Source: an uncultured Ruficoccus sp.
GTDB taxonomy: Bacteria > Verrucomicrobiota > Verrucomicrobiia > Opitutales > Cerasicoccaceae
DNA length: 64,000 bases
Direction of reading: 5' to 3'
Assembly (NCBI GenBank): GCA_965140785.1
Contig: OZ223505.1
Span: 32,001-96,000 of the forward strand
The notes under the pieces are model-generated. The model made no database searches. It was not told where the DNA came from and was given only the letters and a program-made list of their open reading frames with translations. Shown here piece by piece: positions 13,903 to 63,953 of the stretch. The first letter of the stretch is position 1, and each line of letters begins with the position of its first letter. The translations under genes were made by a program, and so were the position numbers.

Positions 13903-13984
13903 TTTAACCACAGAGCGCACAGAGGATTTTTAGGGACTGAGGTTTATTCATTTCTCTGTGTGCTCTGTGTCCTCTGTGGTTAAA
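13903..13984. repeat. Element with inverted arms of 9-nt periodicity (empty)
   Basis: tttaaccacagagcgcacagagg ... ctctgtgtgctctgtgtcctctgtggttaaa. Confidence 0.8.
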
Positions 13985-14114
13985 ACAATAAACGGCAGGG
14001 GGGTAAAAAGACATTTCCCTCCCTCGGCGTCGTAATCAATTCCCCATCCGCGGCTTGCTGTTTTTTGCGTTTGGCATCAATGGTTAACCCCACACTTTTC
14101 CTGAACAACCCATT

Positions 14115-16244
14115 ATGGACCATCCCTTTCTTCACGACAGCTTCATCATTCCCTGGCACGAGCTCACGACCGAGCACATCCAGCCCGACATCGAGCTGGC
14201 TCTGACCCGCGCCCAGGAGCGCATTGACGCCATTGCCGACACGCCGCTGGAGGCGGTGACGTTCGCCAACACCCTGCTCGCCCTCGAAAAGGCGACCGAG
14301 GGGTTGACCCGCGCCTGGGGCTGCGTCGGCCACCTTGACAGCGTGGACAACAGCCCCGCCCTGCGCGAGGCCTACAACGCCATGCTCCCGAAGGTCTCGG
14401 AGTTTTACACCCGTATCAGCCTGAACAAAAAACTCTGGCTGGTCATCAAGGCGTTCGCTGAGACCGCCGAGGCGAAGGCGCTGAGCGGCACCCGCAAGCG
14501 CTTGCTGGAGGAGACGCTGGAAGACTTCCGCCTGAGCGGGGCGGACCTGCCTGAAGAGAAAAAGAAAGTCCTCGAAGGCATCAACGCCGAGCTTTCGCGC
14601 CTGACGCAGAAGTACGGCGAGAACGTCCTCGACTCCACCAACGCCTGGGAACTGCTCGTCGAGGACGAGTCGCGCCTGGCCGGGCTTCCGCAGTCGGCCA
14701 AAGACGCCGCCCGCGAATCCGCCAAGTCCAAGGGTCACGGCTCGGACGAGCAGCCGGTCTGGCGCTTCACCCTGCACATGCCCTCCATGCTGCCGGTGAT
14801 GAAATACGCTGACGATGAGTCGCTGCGTAAGCAGGTCTGGGAGGGCTCCATCGGCATCGGGCAGAAAGAGCCGCATGACAACACGGACCTGATTTGGAAG
14901 ATTTTGGAAAAGCGGCAGGAGAAGGCCGAGCTGCTGGGCAAGGCACACTTCGCCGATCTCGTGCTGGAGCGCCGCATGGCCAAGGACGGGGCTGCCGCGC
15001 TCGCCTTCACCGAGGACCTGCACACGCGCATCAAGGACGCCTTCGCCGCCGAGGTGGCCGAGCTGGAAACGTTTAAGGCCGAGCAGACCGGCACCGAGCG
15101 CGACCACCTCCAGCCCTGGGAAGTCGCCTACTGGTCCGAAAAGCTGCGCAAGCACCGCTACGCCCTCGACGAGGAGGAGCTGCGCCCGTACTTCCCCATC
15201 AACCGCGTGGTCGAGGGGATGTACGAGCTGGTCGAGCGCATTTTCGGGGTAAAGATCGTCCAGCGGCCCACCCGCTACACCGACCCCGAGAGCGGCGAGG
15301 AGCAGACGTTCGACGAGGGCACGCCTTCGTCCGACCACGCCATCGCCGAGGTTTGGCACCCGGATGTGAAGTTCTACGACCTGCTCGACGGTGACGGCAC
15401 GCACCTGGGCTCCTTTTACGCCGACTGGTACCCGCGCGAGTCCAAGCGCGGCGGCGCCTGGATGAACTACCTGCGCACCGGCGGCCCCGTCCCCGGTGAC
15501 AAGCCCGAGCCGCACCTGGGCTTGATGTGCGGCAACCTCAACCCGCCCGTCGGCGGCAAGCCCGCCCTCATGAACCACCGCGACGTGGAGACGATTTTCC
15601 ACGAGTTCGGGCACCTGCTGCACCACCTGCTGGGCAAGGTGGACATCAAATCTCTCAACGGCGTCAACGTCGCCTGGGACTTCGTCGAGCTGCCCTCGCA
15701 GATCATGGAAAACTGGTGCTGGGAAAAGGACGCGCTCGACCTCTTCGCCAAGCACGTGGAGACCGGCGAACGCCTGCCCGCCGAACTGCTCGACAAGATG
15801 CTCGCGGCCCGCAACTTCGAGCAGGCCACCGCCACCATGCGCCAGCTCTCCTTCGGCAAGATGGACCTGGACCTGCACATCGGGATCAAATCCCACGAAG
15901 GCCGCGACCTCGACGCCTGGATCGACGAGTCGCTCGCCGACTACCGCGCCCCGCTCAAGACGAAGACCCCCGCCATCGCGCGGCGCTTCACGCACCTGTT
16001 TTCCGACCCCACCGGCTACGCCGCCGGGTACTACTCCTACAAGTGGGCCGAGGTGCTCGACGCCGACGCCTTCACCCGCTTCCAGCAGGAGGGCGTACTC
16101 AACCCGGCCACCGGCAAGGACTTCCGCGAAAAGATTCTGCAAAAGGGCAACTCCGAGCCGCCCGCAAAGCTCTTCCACGACTTCATGGGCCGCGACCCGG
16201 ACCTCAACTCCCTGTTGCTACGTGCCGGACTACAGCCGGCGTAA
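14115..16244 (+). CDS. prlC: M3 family oligopeptidase A
   Basis: KRGGAWM, FHEFGHLLHH, DFVELPSQIMENW, GYAAGYYSYKWAEVLDADAF. Confidence 0.92.
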   Translation: MDHPFLHDSFIIPWHELTTEHIQPDIELALTRAQERIDAIADTPLEAVTFANTLLALEKATEGLTRAWGCVGHLDSVDNSPALREAYNAMLPKVSEFYTRISLNKKLWLVIKAFAETAEAKALSGTRKRLLEETLEDFRLSGADLPEEKKKVLEGINAELSRLTQKYGENVLDSTNAWELLVEDESRLAGLPQSAKDAARESAKSKGHGSDEQPVWRFTLHMPSMLPVMKYADDESLRKQVWEGSIGIGQKEPHDNTDLIWKILEKRQEKAELLGKAHFADLVLERRMAKDGAAALAFTEDLHTRIKDAFAAEVAELETFKAEQTGTERDHLQPWEVAYWSEKLRKHRYALDEEELRPYFPINRVVEGMYELVERIFGVKIVQRPTRYTDPESGEEQTFDEGTPSSDHAIAEVWHPDVKFYDLLDGDGTHLGSFYADWYPRESKRGGAWMNYLRTGGPVPGDKPEPHLGLMCGNLNPPVGGKPALMNHRDVETIFHEFGHLLHHLLGKVDIKSLNGVNVAWDFVELPSQIMENWCWEKDALDLFAKHVETGERLPAELLDKMLAARNFEQATATMRQLSFGKMDLDLHIGIKSHEGRDLDAWIDESLADYRAPLKTKTPAIARRFTHLFSDPTGYAAGYYSYKWAEVLDADAFTRFQQEGVLNPATGKDFREKILQKGNSEPPAKLFHDFMGRDPDLNSLLLRAGLQPA

Positions 16245-16330
16245 GGTGGGACGGCGTTTTACACCAATTGAGAAGATGGATTTATAGTGAGTCGCAATCC
16301 ATCAAATAGATCAGAAACAGTTCAAACGTT

Positions 16331-16663
16331 CTATGCATTCTGCTCTAACCACAGCTCTTCCCATGTCTCAACCCATGATGGTGGCGTGCTGGACCAGACA
16401 TCGCACACATCATACTTATACTCTCCATCATCATTACGATCAATCAGAGCTTTAGCGTATGCCTCAATGTCATCGCGGTCAAAATAACGAGAAATAATTA
16501 CGGCTATTTTGTCTCCATATCCAATACCTAAATCTTGATAAGCACTTTTTAGAGCGTCATCTAAAGATGGTGCCCTTTCGATTGGAATGCAATCATCACC
16601 TCTGCGACAAATCAGATAATTATATTCTTCGTGATTCATATTTATAGACATAGTTAAAATCAA
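16331..16663 (-). CDS. Hypothetical protein in an AT-rich islet
   Basis: 110-aa ORF spanning the visibly AT-rich segment; start uncertain. Confidence 0.5.
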   Translation of the reverse strand: MILTMSINMNHEEYNYLICRRGDDCIPIERAPSLDDALKSAYQDLGIGYGDKIAVIISRYFDRDDIEAYAKALIDRNDDGEYKYDVCDVWSSTPPSWVETWEELWLEQNA

Positions 16664-16896
16664 TAAATCCTATATATTGACATGATTAATAATATTATTT
16701 CGTCAATCCTGAATGTTGTTCATTGAATTAAGCCTTATCGATGAGTCGCCTTATACGCAGCGCTCCGGGTCGGTTTTGGGGAACCTTTGCCTACGGGGCC
16801 TGTTCTATGCCGCGTGGAGACAAGGCGTACGGCCCCGCATAACCGACGGCGTTTCCTTGAAAACCCGCAGGAACTGAATTTGCTAAAGAGATAACC

Positions 16897-17637
16897 ATGA
16901 ATACCATCCTCTCACTTTCCCTTTTCCCCTCGCTCGGCTTCATCATCCCGATGGGGGGCGGCTGGGGCCTGTGGCTCGTGCTCATCGTGCCGACGATCAT
17001 TCTCGGCATCTGGGCCCAGCACCGGGTCACGAGCACCTATCGCAAGTACAGCCAGGTGCCCTCGCGCGGACGCATCTCCGGGGCGGAGGCGGCCTCCGCC
17101 GTCATGCGCAAGGCCGGGATCACCGATGTTGAAATCGTCGAAATCGGCGGGCACTTGACCGACCACTACGACCCGGTCAACAAGCGTCTCGCGCTCAGCA
17201 GCGCGAACTACCGGGGCACCAGCCTGGCCGCGCTCGGTGTCTCCGCCCACGAGGCCGGGCACGCCATCCAGCACAAGGTCGGCTACAAGGCGCTCAACCT
17301 GCGCATGGCCCTGATCCCGGTCACGAGCTTCGCCTCGCAGATCCTGCCCATCGTGCTGATCGCGAGCTTCTTCCTGCCCCTGCTGGGGGTGATGGGGATC
17401 AAGATCGCGGTGGTGTGTTACCTGATCCTGACGGTTTTCCAGCTCATCACGCTGCCGGTGGAGTTCGACGCCAGCGCCCGCGCCCGTAAGGAGCTGGTCG
17501 GCATCGGCATCATCGACCAGGACGAGTCCATCGGCGTCGTGCGCACGCTCAATGCCGCGGGCTGGACCTACGTGGCCGCCTTCATCAGCTCGCTGGCCAA
17601 CCTGATCTTTCTCTTCCTGCTCTCGCGCGACCGGTAA
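16897..17637 (+). CDS. Membrane zinc metallopeptidase (YugP/Zn_peptidase_2 family)
   Basis: LTDHYDP, AHEAGHAIQH, TLPVEFDASARA, LNAAGWTYVAA. Confidence 0.92.
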   Translation: MNTILSLSLFPSLGFIIPMGGGWGLWLVLIVPTIILGIWAQHRVTSTYRKYSQVPSRGRISGAEAASAVMRKAGITDVEIVEIGGHLTDHYDPVNKRLALSSANYRGTSLAALGVSAHEAGHAIQHKVGYKALNLRMALIPVTSFASQILPIVLIASFFLPLLGVMGIKIAVVCYLILTVFQLITLPVEFDASARARKELVGIGIIDQDESIGVVRTLNAAGWTYVAAFISSLANLIFLFLLSRDR

Positions 17638-17659
17638 AGCCGTCGCTGGGCGGGATGCT

Positions 17660-17824
17660 AGGGCCTGTTCAGGTAAACGCTCAAAGCGGCATAAAATGGG
17701 TCTTTTCGCTCTGGAATCGACGTTTTTCGACTCGATGAATCTTGATTCACCTCGTCTCAAAACCTCAATTCAGCCTCGAAAATCCCTCATTTTTCCATCT
17801 TTTCCGTTTACCTGAACAGGCCCT
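17660..17824. mobile_element. 165-bp MITE-like palindromic element
   Basis: Perfect 20-bp terminal inverted repeat agggcctgttcaggtaaacg/cgtttacctgaacaggccct; interior is an imperfect palindrome centred on gaatc-tt-gattc. Confidence 0.75.
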
Positions 17825-17842
17825 GGATCATCCGCTTTTTCC

Positions 17843-17874
17843 AAACCGGACTTCCGCCCGAAGTCCGGTTTTTT
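17843..17874 (+). terminator. Intrinsic terminator
   Basis: ccggacttc-cgccc-gaagtccgg followed by tttttt. Confidence 0.8.
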
Positions 17875-17968
17875 GTTTTCGGTTTTCCCGTTCCGACGCA
17901 GATTCTTATTCTGCGTGAATTACCCGCCTTTTCTTGACTAACTAATAAATCCCGGCAGCTTGGCTAAT

Positions 17969-18361
17969 ATGCTGCGACTCTCCGGCTGCTGCCTGCTTTT
18001 GCTGGCCCTGCTCTCCGCTCTCAATGTTCATTGGGCGGTCCTGCAGGGCGTGGCCTGGGCGAGCATGCTGAGCAAGGAGCAGCAGCGCGCGGCCACTTAC
18101 CGCGAAGCGATTGAGCGGACCTTCGGCGGGGAGTATCCCTGCGAAATCTGCGGACTGATTGATCAGAACCTCCTCAAGGAGCCCGCGCCGCTCAAGGCCG
18201 CCCGTCAGGCCGAATACCTCAGCGTAAAGCTGATCCTGCCCCGGGCCGAGAAGATCGTTCCCGTCCCGGCCAGCCAGCGCATGGCGCTGATCCCGGCCCC
18301 GGATACACGGGCGGCTGTGTTGCCGTCCCTGCCGGAGACGCCGCCCCCACGGCTCAGTTAA
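17969..18361 (+). CDS. Small membrane protein with CxxC and C-terminal PPPR (DUF2946-like leader candidate)
   Basis: N-terminal hydrophobic segment, HWAVLQGVAWASM, TFGGEYPCEIC, ends PETPPPRLS. Confidence 0.75.
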   Translation: MLRLSGCCLLLLALLSALNVHWAVLQGVAWASMLSKEQQRAATYREAIERTFGGEYPCEICGLIDQNLLKEPAPLKAARQAEYLSVKLILPRAEKIVPVPASQRMALIPAPDTRAAVLPSLPETPPPRLS

Positions 18362-18462
18362 AGCGTCTCTCTCTTTCTTTTCCTATCCCGTGCGCTGAGG
18401 CAAAAAATGCTTCAGGGCTGCCCGGGTCTTCTCTGTTTACAGACTTATAACTTTCACGACAA

Positions 18463-19140
18463 ATGTATCATAAAATATTTTTATTCTCCCTGGGCTCTCT
18501 CTGCGCCCTCACCTCGCAGGCTGCGGAGCTGAACAGCGTCGGCCAGATGATGCCGATGATTCATATCAACATCGATTTCAACAGCTTCAACGACGAGCTG
18601 AGCGTCCACGTGGACAGCGGCGTGCCGCAAATGCAGCCGCTCAGCGTCGCCTCGCCGGGCGACTCCTTCAACCCGGCCGCCCCGTGGTACACCACGCTTG
18701 ATCCCAGCCAGGAGGGACTGGCCTGGACGCGGCGCTACGGCTTCGTCGCCACGAATGACCCGGCTCCGGAAGGATTGAGCTTCTGGGTCGATCTCGACGT
18801 AACCACGATGGGGCTGGAGGCTTACTTCACCCGGACTGAGCCGGACATGTTCACGCCTATCTTCGGCACGGACGGCTCCAGTACCTTGTGGGAGTTTCCC
18901 AATACCATGATCCACCCGGTTTTCGCGGGCGATCCGACCGTGGCCAGCTATGTGCTGACCGGCACGATCTATGTGGGCGACAGCGAAGGCGTGGCTGCAG
19001 CCGGGTACAACAGCGCGGCGTTTACGCTTAACTTCACCTCGGTGCCCGAGCCGGGCGTCTATGCGCTGGCGGTGGGCCTGCTCGCGCTGGTGCCGCTGCT
19101 GGTCCGCTGCCGGAAAGGGAAGGCGGGCGCGCGTGCTTAA
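18463..19140 (+). CDS. PEP-CTERM surface protein with Met/His motifs
   Basis: Signal peptide; MMPMIHI and TMIHP; VPEPGVYALAVGLLALVPLLVRCRK. Confidence 0.85.
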   Translation: MYHKIFLFSLGSLCALTSQAAELNSVGQMMPMIHINIDFNSFNDELSVHVDSGVPQMQPLSVASPGDSFNPAAPWYTTLDPSQEGLAWTRRYGFVATNDPAPEGLSFWVDLDVTTMGLEAYFTRTEPDMFTPIFGTDGSSTLWEFPNTMIHPVFAGDPTVASYVLTGTIYVGDSEGVAAAGYNSAAFTLNFTSVPEPGVYALAVGLLALVPLLVRCRKGKAGARA

Positions 19141-19873: not shown

Positions 19874-19911
19874 GACGCAGCGTGAAATCACCCGTGGGCC
19901 GGGCGCGAGAT

Positions 19912-20352: not shown

Positions 20353-20503
20353 GCCCGGAGCAAAGGCCGTAAGGTTGCGGTTGGCAAGCCGTTTACGCGC
20401 GACGTATGGGCGGAATCGATCCGGGTAAGGGCTGGGCGGATCTTCCTGGCCAACCTGTAAAACCGCATTGCACCGGCGGGCGGATGGGTTACGGTGGCGG
20501 TTC

Positions 20504-26187: not shown

Positions 26188-26419
26188 ATTAACCGCAAAG
26201 ACGCAAAGGACGCTAAGCGCTACCGCTGTTAGGCGATAGCATACGAATGGCGGTACGCCTTCTTAACAAGCAAACGCCCAAGATCCCTTTTTATTGGGAT
26301 ATTTCTCTTTTCACCCGGAACGACAAGTAACGGTCAGAGTTTAGACTATCTTAAATAAAGATGAGGGGCACCAATCAATAGCGCCAGCGCTTTGCGTCCT
26401 TCGCGCCTTTGTGGTTAAT
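26188..26419. repeat. Element with about 40-bp periodic inverted arms and an AT-richer interior of about 150 bp
   Basis: attaaccgcaaagacgcaaaggacgctaagcgctaccgct ... agcgccagcgctttgcgtccttcgcgcctttgtggttaat. Confidence 0.85.
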
Positions 26420-26427
26420 CCTCTCCC

Positions 26428-26469
26428 CATTGGCCATTGACTAATGACCCATGACCGAGGACAAATGAC
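26428..26469. repeat. Heptamer tandem repeat (6 degenerate units)
   Basis: cattggc-cattgac-taatgac-ccatgac-cgaggac-aaatgac. Confidence 0.7.
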
Positions 26470-26478
26470 TCCTTTCCC

Positions 26479-27483
26479 ATGTCTTCCCTCACGCTCCATT
26501 CTCCCCTCGATATGCACCTGCACCTGCGGCAGGATGCGATGTTGAAAGCCGTGGCTCCGCTCAGCGCGGAGACCTTCGCCGGGGCCGTCATCATGCCCAA
26601 CCTGGTGCCGCCGGTAGATTCGCTGGAGCGACTGGAGGGGTACCGCGAGGAGATTCTCGCCGCGAGCGGACGGGATGACTTCGCGCCGTTCATGACGTTA
26701 TTTTTCCGCGCCTACACCCGCGAGGAACTGGTGGCGGCCAAGCCGCACATCATCGGGATCAAACTCTACCCGGCGGGCATCACGACCAATAGCGAGGGCG
26801 GTGTCTCCCAGATCGAGCAGGCCGAGCCGACCATGCGCCTGATGGAGGAGCTGGGTATCCCGCTCATGATCCACGGTGAGACCAACGGCTTTGTCATGGA
26901 CCGCGAGACGGAGTTCATGTCCATCTACCGGCAGCTCGCCATTCGCTTCCCGCAGTTGAAGATCGTGATGGAGCACATCACCACGGCCGGGGCGATCGCG
27001 CTGCTGAACGAATTTGAAAACCTGCACGCCACCGTGACCGTGCAGCACCTGCTGATCACGCTCGACGAAGTGGCCGGCGGCATGCTCAACCCGCACCTGT
27101 TCTGCAAGCCGATCGCGAAGCGCCCCGAGGACCGCGAGGCGCTGGCCCACGCTGCCGTTACCGCGCACCCGAAGCTGTCCTTCGGCTCTGACTCAGCCCC
27201 GCACCCGGTGCACAAAAAGGAATGCTGCGGCTGTGCGGCGGGGGTCTTCACCGCGCCCATCGCCCTGCAACTGCTGGCCGGGCTCTTTGAGCAGCACGGT
27301 GCACTTGACCGGCTGCAAGCCTTTGTCTCGGGCAACGCACGCCGGATCTACGGCGTCACCCCGCCGGTCAAGACCGTTACCTTGGAGAAAAAGCCTTTCG
27401 CCATCCCGGCCAGCTACGGCGAGGTCGTCCCCATGTGGGCCGGGCAGGAAATCCCCTGGAGCCTCAGCGCGGTCAAGGCCTGA
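26479..27483 (+). CDS. pyrC: Dihydroorotase (homodimeric type)
   Basis: [44 protein letters not shown]. Confidence 0.96.
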
Positions 27484-27512: not shown

Positions 27513-27782
27513 TTAACCGCAAAGGCGCGAAGAGCGCAAAGCGCTGACGCTCGAATGCCATCGTGCTGCTGTTTCTGAACGGAATAATTGTCAGCCTGTT
27601 GGTGGGCGGGAGAGTTTAAGACTATAGGCAGATGCACGGCCTGCCCCTTGCGTAGCCATGCATACGCCCAGTCAGCCCTAAAAATCAACTGGGGTGACCG
27701 CCTCGATGAAAGGCTGTGGAAATTCGGCGAGCCCACGAGCCATAGCGTCAGCGCTTTGTGCGCTTTGCGTCTTTGCGGTTAA
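27513..27782. repeat. Element with 39-bp periodic inverted arms and an interior of about 190 bp
   Basis: ttaaccgcaaaggcgcgaagagcgcaaagcgctgacgct ... agcgtcagcgctttgtgcgctttgcgtctttgcggttaa. Confidence 0.85.
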
Positions 27783-31945: not shown

Positions 31946-32620
31946 ATGACGGAAGTCCCCAACCTTTCACCCTCTCTCACCATGCCCGCCTACACCGAGC
32001 CCTACTTTCTCTCCTCCGCGCTGGTTGTGATCGACATGCAGAACGATTTCGTGCTGGTGGGCGCTTCCGCCTGTGTCGAGGGGACGGCTGATGTCGTGCC
32101 GTCCATTGCGCGGCTGCTGGAGGTGTATAGACGGCGCGGGCTCACCATTGTACATGTTGTCCGCCTCTATGAACCGGATGGCTCCAATGCCGACTTGTGC
32201 CGTCGCGCGCGGATTGCCGCTGGGGGCCGTATCGTGGAGCCGGACTCGGACGGGGCGGAGATCGTCGAGGAGCTCAAGCCCGTCCCCCAGGCACGTCTGG
32301 ATGCGCCGGCCCTGCTGGCCCGGCATGCCCAGGCGCTGGGGGAACATGAATTCGTCTTTTACAAGCCACGCTGGGGGGCCTTTTATGGGACGGCGCTGGA
32401 AGTCTTTCTGCGCGAGCACGGCGTGGACACGCTGGTGTTCGCCGGGTGCAACTTCCCCAACTGTCCCCGCACGAGCATTTACGAGGCCAGCGAACGGGAC
32501 TTCCGCCTCGTGTTGGCGCGCGATGCGGTTTCCGGCCTTTACCCCAGGGGCGAAGCTGAACTGGAAGCCATCGGCGTGCGCTTGATGGAGGCCGATGAAC
32601 TGGTCGAGGCGATGACCTAA
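31946..32620 (+). CDS. Cysteine hydrolase (isochorismatase family)
   Basis: ALVVIDMQNDF, KPRWGAFYGT, GCNFPNCPRTS. Confidence 0.9.
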   Translation: MTEVPNLSPSLTMPAYTEPYFLSSALVVIDMQNDFVLVGASACVEGTADVVPSIARLLEVYRRRGLTIVHVVRLYEPDGSNADLCRRARIAAGGRIVEPDSDGAEIVEELKPVPQARLDAPALLARHAQALGEHEFVFYKPRWGAFYGTALEVFLREHGVDTLVFAGCNFPNCPRTSIYEASERDFRLVLARDAVSGLYPRGEAELEAIGVRLMEADELVEAMT

Positions 32621-34354: not shown

Positions 34355-34551
34355 CCCCTCAGGCTGGGGAGCCCCGGCCCCGCTGGCAACGGGATAATTT
34401 ACGGTCCTTTTGCGTTTAAGCCGCTGTCAGGCGCGCCGAACCGCCTTGTTTTTCGCAGTGTCTTTCGTTTCCTCCGCGACTTTCAGCGTACCGCCTCGCC
34501 CCTCCCTGAATCTTTACAAATCCATGAATTAAGAATCCACGAATTAACAAA

Positions 34552-35349
34552 CTACCACTTTAAGCGGATGCCGAGTGGGCAGTGGTCGCTGCCCATGACA
34601 TCGCTGAGGATAAAGGCGTCGTCCAGGTGCGGCTCCAGGTCTTTGGAGATGAGAAAGTAGTCGATGCGCCACCCGATGTTTTTCCCGCGGGCGCCGGCCC
34701 GGTAGCTCCACCAGGTGTACTGGTCGGCCAGGCCGGGGTTGCGGTGGCGGAACGTGTCGATAAAGCCGCCCTCGAGGTGCTGCGTGAACTCCGCCCGCTC
34801 CTCGTCAGTAAAGCCCGCGTTGCGGCGGTTGGGCTTGGGCCGGGCGAGGTCGATCTCCTCGTGGGCGACGTTGAAGTCCCCGCAGACCACGACGGATTTT
34901 TCTTTCGCCAGCCCTGTGAGCATCTCGCGGAAGGCCGGGTCGAACTCCCCGGTGCGGTAGCCGAGCCGCCGCAGCTCATTCTGGGAATTGGGTACATAGA
35001 CATTGACCAGGTAAAAGCGTCCGAAGTCGGCCACCTGCACGCGCCCCTCCTGGGGGTGGACGGCCCGGTCCGGCCAGTCGATCCGCACGGAGGCGGCGGG
35101 GTGCTGCGAAAGAATGGCCGTGCCCGAGTAGCCTTTTTTCTCCGCCTCGTGGTAGTACTGGCACGGGTAGGGGATTTCGAGCTTGGGGGCGGCGTCCTCG
35201 TTCACCTTGATCTCCTGCAGACACAGGATGTCCGGCTGGTGGGTCGCGATGAAGTCGGTAAAGCCCTTTTTCATCACGGCGCGCAGGCCGTTTACGTTCC
35301 AGGAGACGAGGGTCAGCTCGTTGGGCAGGGGTTGGGTCGTTTCGCTCAC
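34552..35349 (-). CDS. xth: Exodeoxyribonuclease III / AP endonuclease
   Basis: [44 protein letters not shown]. Confidence 0.96.
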
Positions 35350-40050: not shown

Positions 40051-40122
40051 GGGGCGCCCCTGTGCCGAGAATTACCTCCGCCTGTAATACCGCTTGCAAC
40101 CAGTTTTGATAAGGTCAGGGAT

Positions 40123-40198
40123 TTAACAGGAAGGCCGGAAAGAACGAAAAGAAAGATCTATAGCCTTCTACCCCCGCTCGTCCCGACCTTCCTGTTAA
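40123..40198. repeat. Element with periodic inverted arms, ttaacaggaagg subfamily (empty)
   Basis: ttaacaggaaggccggaaagaacgaaaag ... cgctcgtcccgaccttcctgttaa. Confidence 0.75.
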
Positions 40199-40249
40199 CA
40201 ATAATCGCTCAAAAATCTTTCTGATTGTATCATTTCCGTTCTCCGATTC

Positions 40250-41778: not shown

Positions 41779-41855
<77 letters not shown>

Positions 41856-43085: not shown

Positions 43086-43446
43086 ATTTAACAGGAAGGC
43101 CGGGGGGGACGCGAAGAGGCCAGGCTGCCGCGGTTTTGCTGCTCTGGTTCAATCTCTAATCCCTATTTGGGGAGGAGGCGTTTAGGCCACGTGGACAAAA
43201 TAGCTCATGTCGCCCCTATGGGCGCATTTAGGCCCAAAATCCATGTCCTCAGCTCGACAATTCGGCAAATTGCCTGGCTTCGAAGCCTGAATTTCGGACC
43301 AAAAATCGCCTTCGGTTGCTCGTTCCGTATTTTGTTCACGCGGCCTAGAGCATGCATGAAGTGTGTAAGAATGCGGATCGTGCTCACAGAACAGTCCATT
43401 TCCCATCTGGACTTTCTTTTCGCTCTTCCCGGCCTTCCTGTTAAAT
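43086..43446. repeat. Element with periodic inverted arms (ttaacaggaagg subfamily) containing a nested palindromic element
   Basis: atttaacaggaaggccggggggacgcgaagag ... ctttcttttcgctcttcccggccttcctgttaaat. Confidence 0.8.
43183..43347. mobile_element. 165-bp MITE-like palindromic element (nested)
   Basis: taggccacgtggacaaaata / tattttgttcacgcggccta (18/20 inverted match); imperfect internal palindrome. Confidence 0.65.
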
Positions 43447-51715: not shown

Positions 51716-52273
51716 GGGGATTAACCGCAAAGGCGCAAAGGCGCAAAGGTGAATGTTGCAGGAGTTAGGGGGAGCGGGTTGGCCTTTTTAGCGGCTAAGG
51801 ACGACACGCCGGATGCCTTGTTTGATTAACGGGGTGTTAAAGTTAATCAAAAGACCGAGCTGGTTGCCGGTTAATTTAAGATAAGTGAGCAACTGGGCTT
51901 GATGAATGGGTGCTAGTTCTTCGATCGCCTTGATCTCGATGATGATCTTTTTTTCGATCCAAATGTCGAGCCTGAGTCCGGCATCAAGTTCCACTCTATC
52001 ATAGACCACGGGAAGGTGAACTTGTGTCTCTATTCCGAGATTTTGTTTGGCTAGTTCATGGGCAAGACACTTTTTATATACCGATTCGAGCAGGCCGGGA
52101 CCGAGTGCCGTATGCACTTTATAGGCACAGTCTACGGCAATTTTAGCCAAGGAGTTTTCCAGTTCCAACGGCATTCCCATTAATGTCTTCTACAAAGACC
52201 GAAAGCACCAAGACGGTAAAGCCAGAAGTCAATTGCCCTCCTTGGCGCCTTTGCGTCTTTGCGGTTAATCCCC
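51716..52273. mobile_element. Putative mobile element: 34-bp periodic inverted arms enclosing one GxxExxY gene
   Basis: ggggattaaccgcaaaggcgcaaaggcgcaaagg ... ccttggcgcctttgcgtctttgcggttaatcccc (2 mismatches); AT-richer interior. Confidence 0.7.
51788..52180 (-). CDS. GxxExxY protein (predicted PD-(D/E)xK nuclease fold)
   Basis: VHTALGPGLLESVY, RLDIWIEKKIIIEIKA, HQAQLLTYLK, GLLINF. Confidence 0.93.
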   Translation of the reverse strand: MGMPLELENSLAKIAVDCAYKVHTALGPGLLESVYKKCLAHELAKQNLGIETQVHLPVVYDRVELDAGLRLDIWIEKKIIIEIKAIEELAPIHQAQLLTYLKLTGNQLGLLINFNTPLIKQGIRRVVLSR

Positions 52274-55220: not shown

Positions 55221-56047
55221 ATGATGGACGAACCCGAGAATGGTCAAGAGCTCGCCAACGAGCCTGAGGAGCACGAGCCCGGTACGATGGGGCTGCTCGA
55301 CCACCTGGAGGAGCTGCGCTGGGCGGTGCTCAAGAGCATGAGCGCAGTGTTGGCCGGGGTCCTGCTCACGGCCTGTTTCTTTCCCACTTTTTTCTCTGTC
55401 CTGCGCTACCCGCTGGACCGCGCGATCGCCAACGAGCCGGACGGCCTCGTCGCCCTGACCACCACGAGCGTGATGGGCGTCTTCATGGTGATCATCCAGG
55501 TCTGTATGATCGGGGGCGTGGCCCTGGGCCTGCCTTTTGTGCTCTACCATTTTTCCCGTTTCGTCGCGCCGGGGCTGACGCAAAAGGAAAAAACGCGCCC
55601 TCGTCCCGGCTTGCGGGGCGACGCTCGTGCTCTTCCTTTTGGGGTGCCTGTTTCGCCTACTTCGTGGTGCTGCCGACCGGGCTGGAAGTGACCTTGTATT
55701 TAAATAAGAAACTCGGACTGGGGATTATCTGGACGGCGCAGAGCTACTATAACCTGGTCATCTGGCTGATGATCGGAGTGGGGGTGGCCTTCGAGTTTCC
55801 GCTCGTGCTGGTGATCCTTCAATACATCGGGGTGATCTCACCGGAGCAGTTGCGCGAGTACCGCCGCTTCGCCGTGGTGATCATCCTGGTGGCCGCGGCC
55901 CTGATCACGCCCGGGGGCGACCCGGTGACGATGCTCATGCTGGCTTCCGTGCTCTACCTGTTCTTCGAAGCTGCCATCGTGGTGGGGGATAAACTCGTCC
56001 GCAAACGCAAGGCCGCGATGGAAGAGTTCCTGGACGACGAGGAGTAA
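55221..56047 (+). pseudogene. tatC: Twin-arginine translocase subunit TatC, split by two +1 frameshifts (real lesion or sequencing error)
   Basis: LLDHLEELRW ... FVAPGL and AFEFP ... AALITPGGDP in different frames; removing one A (55588-55593) and one T (55651-55653) restores one ORF. Confidence 0.85.
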
Positions 56048-56185
56048 CCCTCCTTCTCGTTTGTTTGGATAGTCTGGAGTTCGACCACGGCTTTTTTCGC
56101 AGTGGCAGGACTTGCTTTAAAAACCAGTTCAGCCGAGTGCGACAGATTATACCGATTTCAGCCAGGAATGATAAAATACCTATTT

Positions 56186-56262
56186 CCCGCGAAGCCACGC
56201 GAAGATACGCAAAGTCGATGAGGAAGTGATTCACTTCGTGTTCCTTCGCGTAACTTCGCGGG
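56186..56262. repeat. Element with inverted arms of 10-nt periodicity (empty)
   Basis: cccgcgaagccacgcgaagatacgcaaag ... cttcgtgttccttcgcgtaacttcgcggg. Confidence 0.75.
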
Positions 56263-56446
56263 CCATCTCTTTATCGATACTACTTGAATACGGTATTATA
56301 CCATTTCTAAGAATTAGATATAGGCTATGTTAGCCCCGGCTAAATAATCATCTCGAAGCAGATGGGAAGCGGTATTAGACGAAAACGCTCGGGTCTGATC
56401 TAGCTCAGTGCGCGGACTCCTGTCTCGGCAGCCCTGATATCCGGGC

Positions 56447-57596: not shown

Positions 57597-57758
57597 GGCA
57601 GTAACTTGGTCAAGCTGAGCGTCGCAGTCAAAATAAATTTATAGGCCCAATAACGGATACTGTCCGGTTGCGGGCCGCTTGCTGAGACGAGCGCGCCCCG
57701 CTGGTTCACAGACGCAAACGGGGCGTGCGTGTTATAAAAACGGGTCGTGTGGCGGCGA

Positions 57759-58394: not shown

Positions 58395-58554
58395 CCCACC
58401 GGCATAGATCAGCGATTCTGTTTTGGAAAGGAGAAAGAATAAGGCCGTGCACTCATGAGGAAAGTAAGCGAGCGGCTGAACGCAAAGAGTGGCACCGCTT
58501 ATGCTCAATTTTGTCCCCGCGACCTCGCCAACCCATTGACCCACTATTTTGCCC

Positions 58555-58812
58555 ATGGAACCTCAGAGTAACCAGATCCACGGCCACGCCGTGATGGACA
58601 TGATGATCGCCGCCGACCAGGCCTATACCCGTGAGAGCTTGCGGGCGGCCATCGTCGAGCGCTTCGGTGAGGACGCGGTTTTCTACACCTGCTCGGCCAG
58701 TGGGCTGGACGTGGACGCGATGATCGACTTTCTCGCCGGCCATGGGAAGCTCAAGGGCGAGCCCGGGGCGTTGCGACTCGATCCGTCCACCCGTTGCGAT
58801 GATGATGAATAG
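58555..58812 (+). CDS. YecH family (DUF2492) metal-binding protein
   Basis: IHGHAVMDMM, FGEDAVFYTCSA, FLAGHGK. Confidence 0.85.
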   Translation: MEPQSNQIHGHAVMDMMIAADQAYTRESLRAAIVERFGEDAVFYTCSASGLDVDAMIDFLAGHGKLKGEPGALRLDPSTRCDDDE

Positions 58813-58854
58813 GGGCGGGAGCGTGATTGGCGGCGGGCGGCTTGCCCTCAAATG

Positions 58855-59790
58855 CTAGAAGCTCGCGCCGATTTCGAAGCCGAAGGTGGCGGTCGGCTCG
58901 GCCTTGACCGTTTGGTACTTGTTGCGGTTGGCGCGGAACTCGTACTCGCTCCAGAAGTCGCCCTGAACGTAGCCGCGCACGTAGAAGGGGCCGCCGAAGC
59001 GGTAGGTGACGCCGACGGCGGCGGTTACGGAGGAGGCTTCCACCGCGGGGTTCACGACCGAGCTGGCAGCCTGGACGTACTGCTTGTTGAGCTGGAAGCT
59101 GCTGGAGTTGTACTGCACGGTGAAGTCGAGCACCGTCTGCTGGTCGGCGTTGACGTCGTAAACGAGCGTCACCCCGTTGAAGCTGCGCAGGCGCAGGTTC
59201 TCGTTGATGCGCCACTCGATGAAGCCCACCGGCCAGTAGCGCACCGCCTGTTGAAGGTCGGAGATGATCAGCACACCGAAGGAAAAGGAGAAGCCTTTGA
59301 AAAACTCGTAGCTGGCACCGAAACTGGCGGTGTAGGAGTCGCCGCTGGTCAGCGTGGCGTCCCCGGACTCGGCCCCGAGGCTGCCGCTGGCCATGGCGTA
59401 CGCGCCCCAGTCGCTGTCCTCGAACTGGTACTGGTAGATCGCGCTGAGCGAAATCTGGCTCACATCGCTGAAGTAGCTGGGCGCGCCATTGGACCAGTTG
59501 TAGTCGCTGTAGGTGTAGTCGAAGGTGATGCTGAGGCGGTTGTCCTTCCAGCCCTTCTTGTAGCTGAGGGTCGTTTCCAGCTCGGTCAGATCCATCTCGC
59601 CGTTGACGCCGTTCTTGAGGTCGCTGGGAACAGTGTAGCTGACGCCCTGCCCGATGGTGACACCGACCGGAACTTCCGGCGAGAAGATGTCCAGAAACGT
59701 CCCCGAGGTGGTCAGCTGCTGGGCATGGGCGCTCAGGGCAGCCAGGGTGAGGGCGGCGGCAAAGGTGTAGCGGTGGGCACGGTGACGCAT
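58855..59790 (-). CDS. Outer-membrane beta-barrel protein (DUF6268-like)
   Basis: Signal peptide; alternating aromatic beta-strand pattern; C-terminal Phe (IGASF). Confidence 0.78.
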   Translation of the reverse strand: MRHRAHRYTFAAALTLAALSAHAQQLTTSGTFLDIFSPEVPVGVTIGQGVSYTVPSDLKNGVNGEMDLTELETTLSYKKGWKDNRLSITFDYTYSDYNWSNGAPSYFSDVSQISLSAIYQYQFEDSDWGAYAMASGSLGAESGDATLTSGDSYTASFGASYEFFKGFSFSFGVLIISDLQQAVRYWPVGFIEWRINENLRLRSFNGVTLVYDVNADQQTVLDFTVQYNSSSFQLNKQYVQAASSVVNPAVEASSVTAAVGVTYRFGGPFYVRGYVQGDFWSEYEFRANRNKYQTVKAEPTATFGFEIGASF

Positions 59791-59994
59791 AAGAAAGGGC
59801 TATTATTCGAATTTAATTAAGAATAATGTCAAGACTGAGCGTACATAGTATCAAAGAAAAGGGAGGGCCGTCAATAACGGGCGGGCGTGAGTTTTCCGGT
59901 GAAAGGAATCCTTGCTATTTGCGTCAAATTCCAGCATCACACACGGCACAGGCGCTCCCTGATTTTGCCTCTCACTTAACCACCGGGAACGGAT

Positions 59995-60516
59995 ATGTTG
60001 CAACTGGTCCACGACAATGTGCGCTGCCTGCGTCAGGGCATCGATCTGCTCAAGTCGCTGCCCGCCTCCGAATACATCCGCAAGCATCCGCAATGCTTCG
60101 GCAGTACCATCGGGGGGCACATGCGTCATAATATCGATCACTATGACAGTTTTGTCCGGGGCCTGCCAACGGGAGAGATCGACTACGACGCACGTGTGCG
60201 GGATCCGGAGGTTGAGACCGGTCTGGCACGGGCCACCCAACGCCTGGAGGAACTGATATCCGCCCTGGAGGCCATCAATGAAAAGGCGCTGGAGTCACCG
60301 GTCGAGGTGATTATGGATAGCGGGGGCGACCCCGCGCTGTGTGGCCCGACCGCTTCAAGCGCCCGGCGCGAGTTGCAGTTCCTCCTCAGCCACACCGTTC
60401 ATCACTACGCGCTCATCGTGGTGCTGTGCCAGTTGCGCGGGATCGAGACAGCCCCGGACTTTGGCGTCGCGCCCAGCACTCTGCGCCATCGCGCCCAGTC
60501 CTCATGTGCACAGTAA
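59995..60516 (+). CDS. DinB-like four-helix His metal-binding protein
   Basis: TIGGHMRHNIDHY, IDYDARVRD, RELQFLLSHTVHHYAL, FGVAPST. Confidence 0.85.
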   Translation: MLQLVHDNVRCLRQGIDLLKSLPASEYIRKHPQCFGSTIGGHMRHNIDHYDSFVRGLPTGEIDYDARVRDPEVETGLARATQRLEELISALEAINEKALESPVEVIMDSGGDPALCGPTASSARRELQFLLSHTVHHYALIVVLCQLRGIETAPDFGVAPSTLRHRAQSSCAQ

Positions 60517-61247
60517 CCTGGTGGAGCGCAGCCGACGGCTACGAGCTGTACTTTAACCGCGACGAGCTCAAGTCGCGCCTGCCTGGCCTGCCGCCGGAGG
60601 AACGCGTGCTGGATGGGGTGCGCTACCTGAGCCCGCGCGATGGTGATGAGGGGGGCACCTGGCTGCTCGTTAATGAATTCAGCCTCACGCTCTGCCTGAT
60701 CAACCAGTACCCGTTGCGCCGCCCGGTCAAGCGCGGCCCACTGGTCAGCCGGGGGCATCTGGTCCGTGCGCTGGCCTCCTGCCGTGAGGTTGCGGAGGTG
60801 GCTCGGTGTCTGCGTGATTCCGAACTTTTTTCCTACCGGCCTTTTCAACTGGTGGCGGTCGAGCCGGGCGGGGCGGGGGTGGCCTATGCCTGGGACGGAC
60901 ACGCGCTGGCTGAGACTGAAAACGCCCGCGAGCGTATGCCTTTTACCTCCTCCTCCTATCTGTCCGAGCAGATCGTCCAGCACCGCCGCGAGCGTTTTTC
61001 GCAGATCGTGGCCGAGCGCGGCGATATGAGCCCGCGGGATTTGCTGGCCTTTCACCGTGAGCACAGCGTGGGGGCCGGGGCGTTCTCGGTCTGCATGCAG
61101 CGCGACGATGCCGAGACGGTCAGCCTGACGCAGGTCGTCGTGCGTCCGGAGAAAATTTCCATGACCTATTCGCAGAAAGTCCCGGGGCAGCCGGTGTTCG
61201 CCGAGCCGGTCCATGCTTCGCTTAAACCCCGGGCCTGCCTTTCCTGA
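60504..61247 (+). CDS. NRDE/TANGO2 family protein (Ntn-hydrolase-like, N-terminal Cys)
   Basis: MCTV..., FNRDE, GGTW, SRG, TVS; overlaps the DinB stop by 13 nt. Confidence 0.9.
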   Translation: MCTVTWWSAADGYELYFNRDELKSRLPGLPPEERVLDGVRYLSPRDGDEGGTWLLVNEFSLTLCLINQYPLRRPVKRGPLVSRGHLVRALASCREVAEVARCLRDSELFSYRPFQLVAVEPGGAGVAYAWDGHALAETENARERMPFTSSSYLSEQIVQHRRERFSQIVAERGDMSPRDLLAFHREHSVGAGAFSVCMQRDDAETVSLTQVVVRPEKISMTYSQKVPGQPVFAEPVHASLKPRACLS

Positions 61248-61249
61248 CG

Positions 61250-63886
61250 ATGCGAGCGGGCACGGAGAAAAATAAGCGCGAAAGCCGCAAGCGCCGGTTC
61301 CGCCTGATGGTGGTGAGCGCGTTTGCGTTGCTGCTGCTGGCCTCGTACCTGTGGCGTCACTTTACCCTGCCGCCGACCGGGCCGCTACTGCCTGGCCAGG
61401 TCCGGGTCGCCCTGCCGGAGTGGAAGGTGGACCGCCACGCCGACGGCGAGATCGAACTGGCCTACCGCGACCTGCCGGCGAAGTCGGGCGACCCCGACGC
61501 GCCGGTGCTGATTCTCGTCCACGGCAGTCCGATGGCCTCGCAGGCGCTGGACGGCCTCATCCCGGGGCTGAACGAAAACACCCGGCTGATCCTGCCCGAC
61601 CTGCCCGGCTTCGGTGGCTCGACGCGGGACATCCCCGACTACTCGATCCGCACGCACGCGCACGCGATTCTCGACCTGATGGACCACCTCGGCCTGGAGC
61701 GGGCAAACCTCCTCGGCTACAGCCAGGGGGGCGGCGTGGTTATCAACGTGGCCGAACTCGCCCCCGAGCGCGTCCAGAGCCTGATTCTGCTCTCGGGCAT
61801 CGGCGTGCAGGAGTACGAGCTGACCGGCGATTACACGCTCAACCACGGCCTCTACGGGATGCAGTTACTGATCCTGACTGCGGCCCGCGAGGCGCTGCCG
61901 CACTTCGGCGTGCTGGACCGGTCGCTGCTGAATGTCCCCTATGCCCGCAACATGTGGGACAGCGACCAGCGTCCCCTGCGCGGCATTCTGGAAGATTACG
62001 ACGCGGCCATGCTCATCGTTCAGGGTGACAAGGACTTCTTCGTGCCGCCGACGACGGCCTACGAGCACCACCGTATCGTGCCCCAGAGCGAACTGGCCCT
62101 GCTCGACGGCGGGCACCTGCTGCCCTTCAAACGGCCCGACGCAGTGGCGGAAAAAGTGGACGGCTTTTTACAGAAGGTGAAAAAGGGCGCGGCCACGATC
62201 CGCCGGGACGCTTCGCCCGAGCGCCTGCTCAAGGCCGCCGCCGATCAGCCCGTTGCCCGGCGTGAGGCCAATGGCCGGACCCTGGCCTTTTACTGCGCCT
62301 TGCTGGTGGCCGGCACACAGGTGGCCGAAGACCTGACCTGCATCTCGGCGGGCTTTCTGGCCGCGCGCGGGGTGGTGCCGTTCTGGGCGGGGACGGTGGC
62401 CTGCATCTTTGGGATCTTTGCCGGGGACATGCTGCTGTACCTGGCCGGGCGTTTCCTGGGCCGTAAGGCGCTGCGCCACGCCCCGCTTAAATGGATGCTC
62501 AAGGAGCGCGACCTCAACTCCATGCAGGAGTGGTTCGAGCAACGCGGGCCGATGCTGATCGTGATGTCGCGCTTTATGCCGGGCACGCGTATCCCGGTCT
62601 TCTTCGGGGCGGGGATGCTGCACATGCCCACCGGCAAGTTCATGTTTTATTTCCTGCTGGCGGCGGTGGCCTGGACGCCGTGCCTGGTGGGGCTTGCCTG
62701 GTGGCTCGGGGACGCCTTCATCGGCTACTTCGAGCGCTTCGAGAAGTTCGCCATCGTCGGCCTGATCGGGGTGGTCGTCGGGATCATGCTCTTGCTGCAC
62801 CTGGTCGTACCCTTGTTTACCTGGCGCGGACGGCGTAAACTCTACGGGCGCTGGAAACGCTGGGCGCGCTGGGAGTATTGGCCGACGTGGCTCTTTTATC
62901 CGCCGGTGGCGGTCTATGTGCTGTGGCTGGGCCTGCGCAACCGGCACCTCGCACTGTTCACCGCCGTCAACCCCGGCATGGGCGAGGGCAGCGGCTTCAC
63001 CGGCGAGTCGAAGGTCGCCATCCTCGACAAGCTCAAGGGCGCGGACGGGGCGATTGCGACCTGGATGGCGCTCCGCGCCGGGGACACCGCCGAAGAAAAG
63101 GAGCGGCAGCTGCGCGCCTTTATGGAGCGCGAGGGGCTGGACTTCCCGCTCGTGCTCAAGCCCGACCTGGGCGAGCGCGGCAGCGGCGTGGCCATCATCC
63201 GCGACTGGGAGACGGCTCGCGGCTACCTGACACGCTGCCCGGACACCATCATCGCGCAGCGCTACATCCCGGGGCGCGAATACGGGATCTTTTACGTGCG
63301 CTATCCCTGGGAGGAAAAGGGGCGGATCTTCGGCATCACCGACAAGCGTTTCACCGCCGTGACCGGCGACGGCAAGAAGCCGTTGGAGGAACTTATCCTG
63401 GGAGACGACCGTGCCGTGTGTATGGAGAGCTTCTTCGAGCAGAAACACAGCGACCACCTCAGCGAGGTGGTGCCCGCCGGGGAAGAATATCAGTTAGCCG
63501 AGCTGGGCACGCACTGCCGCGGCTCGCTCTTCCTCGATGGTTGCGAGCTGGCCACCGAGCCCCTGTGCGAGTGGTTGCAGGGGGTGAGCGATACCTTCGA
63601 GGGCTTTTACTTCGGGCGCTACGACGTGCGGGTTCCCTCGGTGGAGGACCTGCAGGCCGGACGCAATCTCTCCGTGATCGAGCTCAACGGCGTCAGCTCG
63701 GAGGCCACCTGGATCTACGACCCGCGGCACTCCGTTCTTTTCGCCTGGCGCACACTCTTTGAGCAGTGGCGGATGGCGTTCAAGATCGCCGCCTGGAACC
63801 GTGCCCACGGCCACCGGCCCGAGACCTGCCGCCGGACCGCACGGGCGATCCTTGGCCGCGGCCTGCGCGAGCCCTTCGAGGCGTGA
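61250..63886 (+). CDS. Fusion protein: alpha/beta hydrolase + DedA/VTT membrane domain + ATP-grasp domain
   Basis: HGSP, PDLPGFG, GYSQGG, GDKD, GGH; EDLT...GDMLLYLAGR...SRFMPGTR; WEYWP, NPG, GESK, FPLVLKPDLGERGSGV, GTHCRG, GRYDVR, IELNG. Confidence 0.9.
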   Translation: MRAGTEKNKRESRKRRFRLMVVSAFALLLLASYLWRHFTLPPTGPLLPGQVRVALPEWKVDRHADGEIELAYRDLPAKSGDPDAPVLILVHGSPMASQALDGLIPGLNENTRLILPDLPGFGGSTRDIPDYSIRTHAHAILDLMDHLGLERANLLGYSQGGGVVINVAELAPERVQSLILLSGIGVQEYELTGDYTLNHGLYGMQLLILTAAREALPHFGVLDRSLLNVPYARNMWDSDQRPLRGILEDYDAAMLIVQGDKDFFVPPTTAYEHHRIVPQSELALLDGGHLLPFKRPDAVAEKVDGFLQKVKKGAATIRRDASPERLLKAAADQPVARREANGRTLAFYCALLVAGTQVAEDLTCISAGFLAARGVVPFWAGTVACIFGIFAGDMLLYLAGRFLGRKALRHAPLKWMLKERDLNSMQEWFEQRGPMLIVMSRFMPGTRIPVFFGAGMLHMPTGKFMFYFLLAAVAWTPCLVGLAWWLGDAFIGYFERFEKFAIVGLIGVVVGIMLLLHLVVPLFTWRGRRKLYGRWKRWARWEYWPTWLFYPPVAVYVLWLGLRNRHLALFTAVNPGMGEGSGFTGESKVAILDKLKGADGAIATWMALRAGDTAEEKERQLRAFMEREGLDFPLVLKPDLGERGSGVAIIRDWETARGYLTRCPDTIIAQRYIPGREYGIFYVRYPWEEKGRIFGITDKRFTAVTGDGKKPLEELILGDDRAVCMESFFEQKHSDHLSEVVPAGEEYQLAELGTHCRGSLFLDGCELATEPLCEWLQGVSDTFEGFYFGRYDVRVPSVEDLQAGRNLSVIELNGVSSEATWIYDPRHSVLFAWRTLFEQWRMAFKIAAWNRAHGHRPETCRRTARAILGRGLREPFEA

Positions 63887-63912
63887 AGGGAGTTCGTGGA
63901 CATTCGTTTTTT

Positions 63913-63953
63913 ATTTAACCGCAAAGGCGCAAAGGACGCAAAGCGCTGCCGCT
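63913..63953. repeat. Left arm of another periodic inverted-arm element (partner presumably beyond the window)
   Basis: atttaaccgcaaaggcgcaaaggacgcaaagcgctgccgct, near-identical to the arms at 26188 and 27513 and likewise preceded by cg(t)n-a. Confidence 0.8.

Follow-up and report, generated by a model that had tools for sequence, protein, structure and literature searches.

What are the paired, periodic repeats that recur between the genes of an uncultured Ruficoccus, and why does one of these pairs enclose a gene for a protein of the GxxExxY family? The stretch that raises this question, hereafter the window, spans 64,000 nt (positions 32,001 to 96,000 of contig OZ223505.1, assembly GCA_965140785.1) of a 4.36-Mb genome that is 91% complete (G000), and its sites were compared with those of four congeners (G001–G004). 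It holds seven pairs of inward-facing arms and one orphan arm; all eight loci that an initial annotation had proposed from the sequence alone were recovered in place. A GxxExxY gene together with two inward arms, each of 2–4 CRCRRAD cores, constitutes the full unit, and arm type (last core base; period 8, 9 or 10–11) follows protein clade, within genomes too. By analogy with REPIN-RAYT systems, we lean towards reading this unit as nuclease-plus-repeat selfish DNA run by an unrelated enzyme, to which we would ascribe cutting and movement. In the window the full unit comprises two features.

51716–52273, unstranded: complete gene-bearing element, inward CGCAAAG arms of period 8 around a GxxExxY gene, between hflX and ppdK.
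51788–52180, minus strand: GxxExxY gene of 130 amino acids, a minimal PD-(D/E)XK nuclease by profile matches, conserved columns and fold model.

The two arms of this element (51716–51749 and 52240–52273) are 94% complementary. The genome of the window has five GxxExxY loci, one of them frameshifted, and all five lie between inward arms, each of a different class. To set this against a wider background, we collected 71 loci from GTDB genomes and examined 68 after dropping three partial matches; both arms were present in 29 of the 68, compared with none of 61 control window pairs, and in 28 of 39 once Chryseobacterium was left aside. The 28 loci with both arms come from Verrucomicrobiota, Bacteroidota, Proteobacteria, Acidobacteriota, Chloroflexota, Desulfobacterota and two archaea. 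A larger set of 192 loci was obtained by adding 30 and 60 loci from about 287 class-wide matches, 27 from close relatives and four of our own; 186 were near-full matches, and 159 of these lie outside Chryseobacterium. For this set the core pattern had been widened after inspection of the data, and the flank control belongs to the 68-locus set alone. Both arms were found at 117 of the 159 loci, one arm at 20 and none at 22, which bears out the proposal of the initial annotation that the filled form of the element holds GxxExxY. A GxxExxY gene at G000:C10:105352-105956 is flanked by two complete hairpins instead of two single arms. The Chryseobacterium lineage (L069–L108, 29 genomes) mostly lacks an arm pair and is possibly a domesticated copy.

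The two arms of a locus are matched to each other and to the protein between them. The last three core bases are identical in both arms at 114 of the 117 loci (shuffle mean 39), and the first spacing is equal at 109 (shuffle mean 42). Mapped on a quick IQ-TREE phylogeny of 115 labelled proteins, the last core base requires 7 changes (shuffle mean 25, minimum 20) and the spacing 25 (shuffle mean 50, minimum 41). The same holds when labels are shuffled only within genomes, among 60 paralogues from 19 genomes: the last base changes 5 times as compared with a mean of 15 (minimum 10) and the spacing 16 times as compared with 28, and none of 500 shuffles reached the observed values. A clade uniting the four intact paralogues of G000 was rejected by the approximately unbiased (AU) test (p 1e-4). 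Residues that covary with arm class may merely mark clades and are therefore not taken as specificity determinants. GxxExxY looks more like a partner enzyme of the arms than plain cargo.

To describe the arms themselves, we defined a strict arm as at least three C[AG]C[AG][AG]A[AGT] cores (CRCRRAD, period 8–11) spaced 7–11 nt. The genome contains 149 strict arms, and three triplet shuffles contain 2, 2 and 2; under a relaxed rule, which also admits the CAGGAAG class, the count is 237 compared with 9–16. Of 93 neighbouring arms at most 1.5 kb apart under the relaxed rule, 68 face inward, 7 outward and 18 share a strand. Six of the window pairs (26188, 27513, 51716, 43086, 56186 and 13903) are within the 25 longest of 138 window inverted repeats, and the 40123 pair was read directly from the sequence and then recovered in a separate search. 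The intergenic placement claimed for the window holds across the genome, as 185 of 189 strong arms fall outside crude hexamer-based gene calls that class 76% of it as coding, and by our own gene calls a gene end lies within 30 nt at five of the eight loci, in keeping with the reported closeness to start and stop codons. Among 182 placed arms, 76 occupy gaps between convergent genes (358 of 1,989 background intergenic gaps) and 9 gaps between divergent genes (476 of 1,989).

Other parts of the initial description needed revision. Pairing applies to seven loci; at 63913 a left arm stands alone, with no partner of its class past the window edge. TTAAC ends are present at six of the seven complete window pairs, whereas genome-wide they anchor just 49 of the 149 three-core arms, other classes beginning with TTAGC, TTTCC, GGGT, CTCA or TTATC; TTAA is thereby ruled out as a general target site or end. 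The tracts at 26428 and 34515, taken for related arms, are 7/8-mer arrays of a sister type and not CRCRRAD. The suggestion that arms are iterated protein-binding sites fits the pattern of agreement between the two arms of 110 loci: core positions 2, 5 and 7 agree at 0.89–1.0 and position 4 at 0.68–0.77, whereas the spacers agree at 0.59 and 0.40 and the inner flank at 0.33. Since cores agree and spacers diverge, this pattern is explained better by iterated protein sites on DNA than by an RNA duplex under selection; a regularly bulged structure would be compatible with it as well. The remaining members of the family in the window, with the shells and tracts that accompany them, are as follows (MITE, miniature inverted-repeat transposable element).

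13903–13984, unstranded: gene-less doublet of the CACAGAG period-9 class, from inverted-repeat search and congener comparison.
26188–26419, unstranded: gene-less doublet of the CGCAAAG class with an inner AGCGCTGNCGCT extension (~230-nt subfamily), upstream of pyrC.
27513–27782, unstranded: gene-less doublet of the same ~230-nt AGCGCTGNCGCT subfamily, downstream of pyrC.
40123–40198, unstranded: gene-less 76-nt doublet of the CAGGAAG class, between dtd and mpg.
40089–40240 (approximate ends), unstranded: ~150-nt MITE-like shell enclosing the 40123 doublet; most of it recurs in six other copies at 82–91%.
43086–43446, unstranded: CAGGAAG-class arm pair with an unrelated MITE inside, from inverted-repeat search and copies.
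43183–43348, unstranded: nested 166-nt MITE with TAGGCC...GGCCTA inverted ends, outside the arm family; 11 copies in G000.
56186–56262, unstranded: gene-less 77-nt doublet of the CGCGAAG period-10 class; cognate GxxExxY in G002 and G003 (L216, L212).
56148–56298 (approximate ends), unstranded: ~150-nt MITE-like shell enclosing the 56186 doublet; five other copies, four at 92–94% and one at 81%.
63913–63950, plus strand: orphan left arm of the CGCAAAG class; a complete CACAGAT-class hairpin follows past the window edge.
26428–26480, plus strand: one-sided heptamer tract of TGACYAA type, sister repeat family.
34515–34552, plus strand: one-sided 7/8-mer tract of RCGAATT type, sister repeat family.

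Copies of the 43183–43348 MITE family are often nested in arm doublets or adjacent to them. At window 2955–3147 the initial annotation overlooked two inward-facing 8-mer arrays of AATGGCTG type; there are 17 such tracts genome-wide, and they belong to a sister family of the arms that flank four-helix-bundle genes.

The protein encoded at 51788–52180 matches TIGR04256 (E 1.4e-42) and PF13366 (PDDEXK_3; E 2.1e-41). It scores over the cut-off of both profiles and combines a catalytic D and (D/E)xK with the corresponding fold, as expected of a PD-(D/E)XK protein. D72, K84, Q96 and N113 are invariant among 77 aligned sequences, and G29, E32, Y35, E82 and Y100 nearly so; D72, E82 and K84 are the catalytic D, E and K, Q96 and Y100 form QxxxY, and G29-E32-Y35 is the motif that names the family. 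A structure model built from this alignment (predicted local distance difference test score, pLDDT, 96) displays a minimal restriction-endonuclease-like core. Fold comparison gave Z ~8 to the BpuSI N-domain, 3IJM and Cas4 SSO0001 and 6.5 to Hjc, middling values that carry no functional meaning. Foldseek returned no significant match for the model and a PDB sequence search none under E 0.1; a profile match to T7 endonuclease I was weak (E 0.48). At the common hflX–ppdK site the ratio of nonsynonymous to synonymous divergence (dN/dS) is 0.08–0.11, and by conserved residues, dN/dS and predicted fold the nuclease gene is intact. Its dS is 1.24 between G000 and G001 and 0.99 between G000 and G002, compared with 0.18–0.44 for flanking genes, whereas between G001 and G002 it is 0.35 and resembles the flanks (0.28–0.51). 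From this contrast we infer that a different allele has probably taken the place of the original copy at this site in G000. Of 72,556 plasmid records 7 contain GxxExxY, and all seven are classed as non-mobilizable; no relative was found in 50,697 phage records, nor in a viral contig scan that covered close relatives only. The available text of PMC3424549 gives the function of the family as 'Unknown' and notes many transfers.

From one congener to the next, sites have gained or lost elements, acquired nested ones or been refilled, the variation in presence and absence that the initial annotation had expected of mobile elements. The 13903 doublet is absent from G001, and other arm classes are stacked there in G002 and G003. 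At 40123, 43086, 56186 and 63913, congeners in which both flanks were found have no element or one of another class; in G001 and G003 dtd and mpg lie 4–5 nt apart at the alignment gap of the 40123 site, and G001–G003 have no arms at the 43086 site. The two pyrC-flanking doublets are present in G001–G003, and 26188 is not in G004. Eight of ten members of their ~230-nt subfamily measure 223–231 nt, with weakly related interiors in either orientation; the two copies are inverted near-copies of each other in G001 and in G002. The two arms of one element share 30–36 of 36 positions, and in G003 both arms of 27513 have switched to the CACAGAG class, 36 of 36 identical. Neither fixed sites devoid of variation or cargo enrichment nor a match of the arms to described insertion sequence (IS) or MITE ends was encountered. 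In the contigs of four sequencing runs, none of the joints listed skipped an element, a result that bears on neither excision nor expression.

Gene-bearing sites turn over as well. The hflX–ppdK site carries the same GxxExxY element in G001 and G002 and no arms in other genera; in G003 an unrelated open reading frame (ORF) of 176 amino acids (L004:948-1475) lies between the retained left arm and a remnant of the right one. We mapped 21 congener GxxExxY loci on G000 and found 17 to be syntenic, several being one site seen from two genomes. At these, G000 has GxxExxY at four, an unrelated ORF with an arm at three, a same-class gene-less doublet at one, an other-class doublet at four, an 8-mer doublet of four-helix-bundle type at one and no arm in the stretch printed at four. 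Another four long pairs, fetched from G001, G003 and G008, all enclose ORFs other than GxxExxY. The cargo-carrying character proposed initially therefore extends to unrelated ORFs found between arms, and six of seven arm-associated or same-site ORFs had no match in a Pfam scan. The seventh (L232:190-810, on G000:C10, at an arm-less site) is an AT-rich HEPN AbiU2 gene, and G004 has a GxxExxY element there. The orphan ORF L004:948-1475 has an acyl-carrier-like N terminus by eye and no Pfam match, and its ends might be cassette sites.

Gene-less doublets form two kinds of population. In G000 the 40123, 56186, CACAAAA and CACAGAT doublets sit inside common shells of ~130–160 nt with outer imperfect inverted ends, and the five CGCGAAG copies have centres that are 94% alike, although their cognate gene is absent from the site where G002 and G003 carry GxxExxY. 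These shell-borne copies look like recent MITE-borne ones. The shell ends may resemble those of IS630 or IS5. A search of G000 with three transposase families yielded no DDE partner for the shells: DDE_3 had no match and DDE_Tnp_1 two fragments, neither adjoining a shell end. The shell-end motif had no match in metagenome contigs, and neither a RAYT nor a DDE partner was found beside the arms. Two near-identical Y1 transposase genes (309 amino acids; G000:C10:480168 and G000:C43:224747) have GGGGTCA-type inverted ends and no arms. In G002 and G003, by comparison, most same-class doublets lack a common shell, with flanks mostly unrelated and centres near shuffle level. All ten CAGGAAG doublets fetched from G003 are 75–76 nt long with arms 86–88% alike, whereas their centres are 36% alike (shuffle 25%) and their flanks 30–34%; eight CGCGAAG doublets of G002 and G003 measure 71–76 nt. 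We read these as old populations of a REPIN-like kind.

To relate arms to the gene more broadly, we surveyed 151 genomes of the class of the window, which as kin are not independent, and called a genome arm-bearing if it had at least two three-core arms. This applied to 88 of 89 genomes with GxxExxY (1–9 copies each) compared with 15 of 62 without, median arm numbers being 29 and 0; 47 of the 62 have 0–1 arms. By family, 33 have both gene and arms, 11 neither, 6 arms only and 1 the gene only. A finer count covered five congeners and seven arm classes, gene classes being assigned by our own reading and one class via BLAST. The median number of arms per cell was 21 with the cognate gene (14 cells) and 3 without (21 cells), with p 0.002 raw and 0.018 after dropping each gene's own arms. 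Each genome has several GxxExxY genes of different clades and tens of gene-less doublets of matching type. At the level of arm class, the match between gene and arms is suggestive only.

In the selfish-DNA reading towards which we lean, GxxExxY would bind the core repeats of its cognate arm class, bring the two arms together or recognise a cruciform that they extrude, and cut near the outer anchor. Host repair might then copy the doublet into AT-rich stretches between genes or re-insert it there, often next to or within an older one. Internal deletion would yield gene-less doublets that move in trans at a low rate, and breaks between arms could at times be filled by foreign ORFs. The youngest copies in G000 may have taken a second, conventional route as passengers in MITE-like shells.

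Several observations weigh against this reading. The 22 loci without any arm and 28 of 29 Chryseobacterium loci without an arm pair (the other has one weak pair) show the gene apart from arms. Conversely, 14 of the 15 arm-bearing genomes that lack the gene were still negative at E 0.001, and one of these 14, G156 (96% complete), has 131 pattern matches compared with 35 in a reversed control, among them paired and nested doublets. The class-level association falls to p 0.10 once scaled by genome total; CACAAAA arms number 14 in G004, which lacks the cognate gene, and one in G003, which has it. Recent copies in G000 ride in MITE-like shells, and unrelated four-helix-bundle genes are arranged in the same way between other repeats. 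Because the gene and its arms are neighbours on the DNA, their shared history is evidence of a travelling unit and not of a protein reading its arms. At 18 congener doublet loci, 12 of them with a syntenic site in G000, neither a precise insertion boundary nor a target duplication emerged, the congeners being too diverged from G000 for sharp junctions. A lone PD-(D/E)XK domain of 130 amino acids is not known to catalyse strand transfer.

The arms might instead be the borders of cassettes mobilised by a trans-acting recombinase or by host recombination, with GxxExxY merely the commonest passenger. Small unrelated ORFs without Pfam match between arms, the four long congener pairs with other contents, a site occupied by GxxExxY or by other ORFs depending on the species, the existence of arm-rich genomes without the gene and the parallel of four-helix-bundle genes as passengers of 7/8-mer arms all speak for this. 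Yet every other cargo ORF was met once, as opposed to GxxExxY at 117 of 159 loci; arm class follows the GxxExxY clade inside genomes; gene-less genomes are mostly arm-poor; and no recombinase candidate was seen beside the arms of G000 or in 20 stretches from gene-less genomes, in which ORFs were judged by eye. On balance we regard this account as unlikely, while giving it some weight. That gene-less doublets are deletion scars of GxxExxY cassettes, spread solely as passengers of IS-derived MITEs, seems improbable to us. It draws on the common 130–160-nt shells around the 40123, 56186, CACAAAA and CACAGAT doublets and on the near-identical CGCGAAG copies of G000 that lack a cognate gene at the site occupied in G002 and G003; most doublets of those two congeners, however, have no common shell and unrelated flanks, neither of the two DDE_Tnp_1 fragments of G000 adjoins a shell end and DDE_3 has no match, and a fixed length with conserved arms and free loops is unexpected for passengers.

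Two further proposals concern what the arms do in place. They might act in RNA, pairing in the mRNA so that the ORF is looped out or excised as in rRNA intervening sequences, or serving as 3' stabilisers, and indeed every element tested folds to long stems on both strands, arms adjoin start codons, and convergent gaps are enriched and divergent gaps depleted. This bias in position would equally fit selection against harmful insertions; moreover, spacer mismatches are frequent, and arm mismatches have no G·U preference on the coding strand (135 versus 160, p 0.16), so that an action in RNA strikes us as quite improbable. An asymmetry between strands in the mismatches of 57 gene-less pairs (p 0.06) was not used. 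The pairs could also be binding sites of a host global regulator or of IHF/HU, a proposal printed for class 2 sites of Geobacter metallireducens (PMC2700814, available text) and in line with the resemblance of iterated cores and free spacers to protein sites. The sites, however, are not kept from one congener to another, avoid divergent promoter regions, adjoin unrelated genes and bracket a single nuclease family across phyla, and the regulator reading, already disfavoured, appears to us highly improbable.

If the enzyme indeed moves or opens the arms, the selfish-DNA reading would imply that the REPIN mode of life arose a second time independently, through a chemistry that is not known to mobilise DNA by itself. 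The abundant intergenic repeats that have been read since 2009 as regulator sites would also be explained, and orphan genes would have an entry route into conserved operons. A large family of unknown function, represented in 89 of the 151 surveyed genomes and across many phyla, gains a candidate DNA substrate, and its clades with different arm codes provide a built-in specificity control. A bolder and doubtful extension is that arm pairs are class-coded slots, which a Cas4-like GxxExxY opens and in which foreign DNA, from 20-nt loops to orphan genes, may be captured or swapped inside housekeeping operons, an integron-like process that would work without a recombinase in many bacterial phyla and some archaea.

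Some observations in the window stand apart from the arm family. A 165-nt MITE with perfect 20-nt inverted ends (17660–17824) has copies elsewhere in G001–G004, where its site is empty. The tatC gene (55221–56047) reads as two overlapping ORFs (55221–55691 and 55664–56047) through a frameshift or an assembly error; near 55600 the contigs of the best sequencing run break and depth is low. A tRNA gene lies at 41782–41855 on the minus strand, just past which synteny with G001 and G002 ends; an Rfam scan matched one tRNA and nothing else.

How, then, does the unit compare with systems already described? Cas4 and Hjc resemble GxxExxY to a middling degree in fold, and T7 endonuclease I does so weakly in profile; GxxExxY has no iron–sulphur cluster cysteines and no CRISPR context here. 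Cargo ORFs between arms bear an outward likeness to integron gene cassettes. The arms share with IS-derived MITEs their non-autonomous, multicopy nature and inverted ends, and the ~150-nt shells of G000 are MITE-like, but the terminal bases of the arms are not fixed, no target duplication was detected, and arm pairs enclose no DDE transposase. The four-helix-bundle genes (TIGR02436, IVP) resemble the unit in that a short gene is bracketed by inward periodic arms and the genome also carries gene-less copies, yet differ in repeat units, fixed period and a non-nuclease protein. One site is occupied by an 8-mer doublet of the four-helix-bundle type in G000 and by a GxxExxY element in G004. Two TIGR02436 genes of G000 (G000:C47:64250-64800 and G000:C26:43700-44200) each lie between inward 8-mer arrays.

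The Geobacter metallireducens sites noted above ('class 2 predicted global regulator binding sites', printed 2009) are very likely one arm class of the CRCRRAD family. According to the available text (PMC2700814), their reverse complement reads AATAA-CACGGAG-A-GACGGAG-AG-CACGGAG, with three units, and they form 21 intergenic inward pairs ~85–440 nt apart, one of which, at 438 nt, has the size of a gene-bearing unit; that text makes no link to GxxExxY, mobility or other phyla. Our literature search, outside whose scope most subscription journals lay, found no account linking arms to GxxExxY, and the available portions of PMC3543383 and bioRxiv 10.1101/2021.01.26.428298 (a single GxxExxY mention) have no bearing on this link.

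The closest parallel is REPIN-RAYT. REPINs are described, in the available text of bioRxiv 10.1101/2021.07.10.451892, as short extragenic inverted doublets with variable spacer in tens to hundreds per genome, and the RAYT gene as chromosomal, kept in place among close relatives and nearly absent from plasmids; REP families are treated in PMC3733652, likewise available in part. As stated there, several repeat groups per genome each flank their own enzyme gene and clades match groups. Here too we find genome-wide populations of extragenic inverted doublets with variable spacer, repeat groups that match enzyme clades and near-absence from plasmids, and some GxxExxY sites are common to congeners. 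The flanked gene, however, encodes a PD-(D/E)XK protein and not an HUH/Y1 tyrosine transposase, and the halves are direct CRCRRAD iterations with variable anchors, whereas REPIN halves are palindromes tagged GTAG/CGTC. RAYT is single-copy and vertical, whereas up to nine GxxExxY genes of mixed clades share a genome and paralogues form no clade; GxxExxY arms also occur in archaea and enclose foreign ORFs. The gene-plus-arms arrangement is real and widespread, and it lies outside any family tested.

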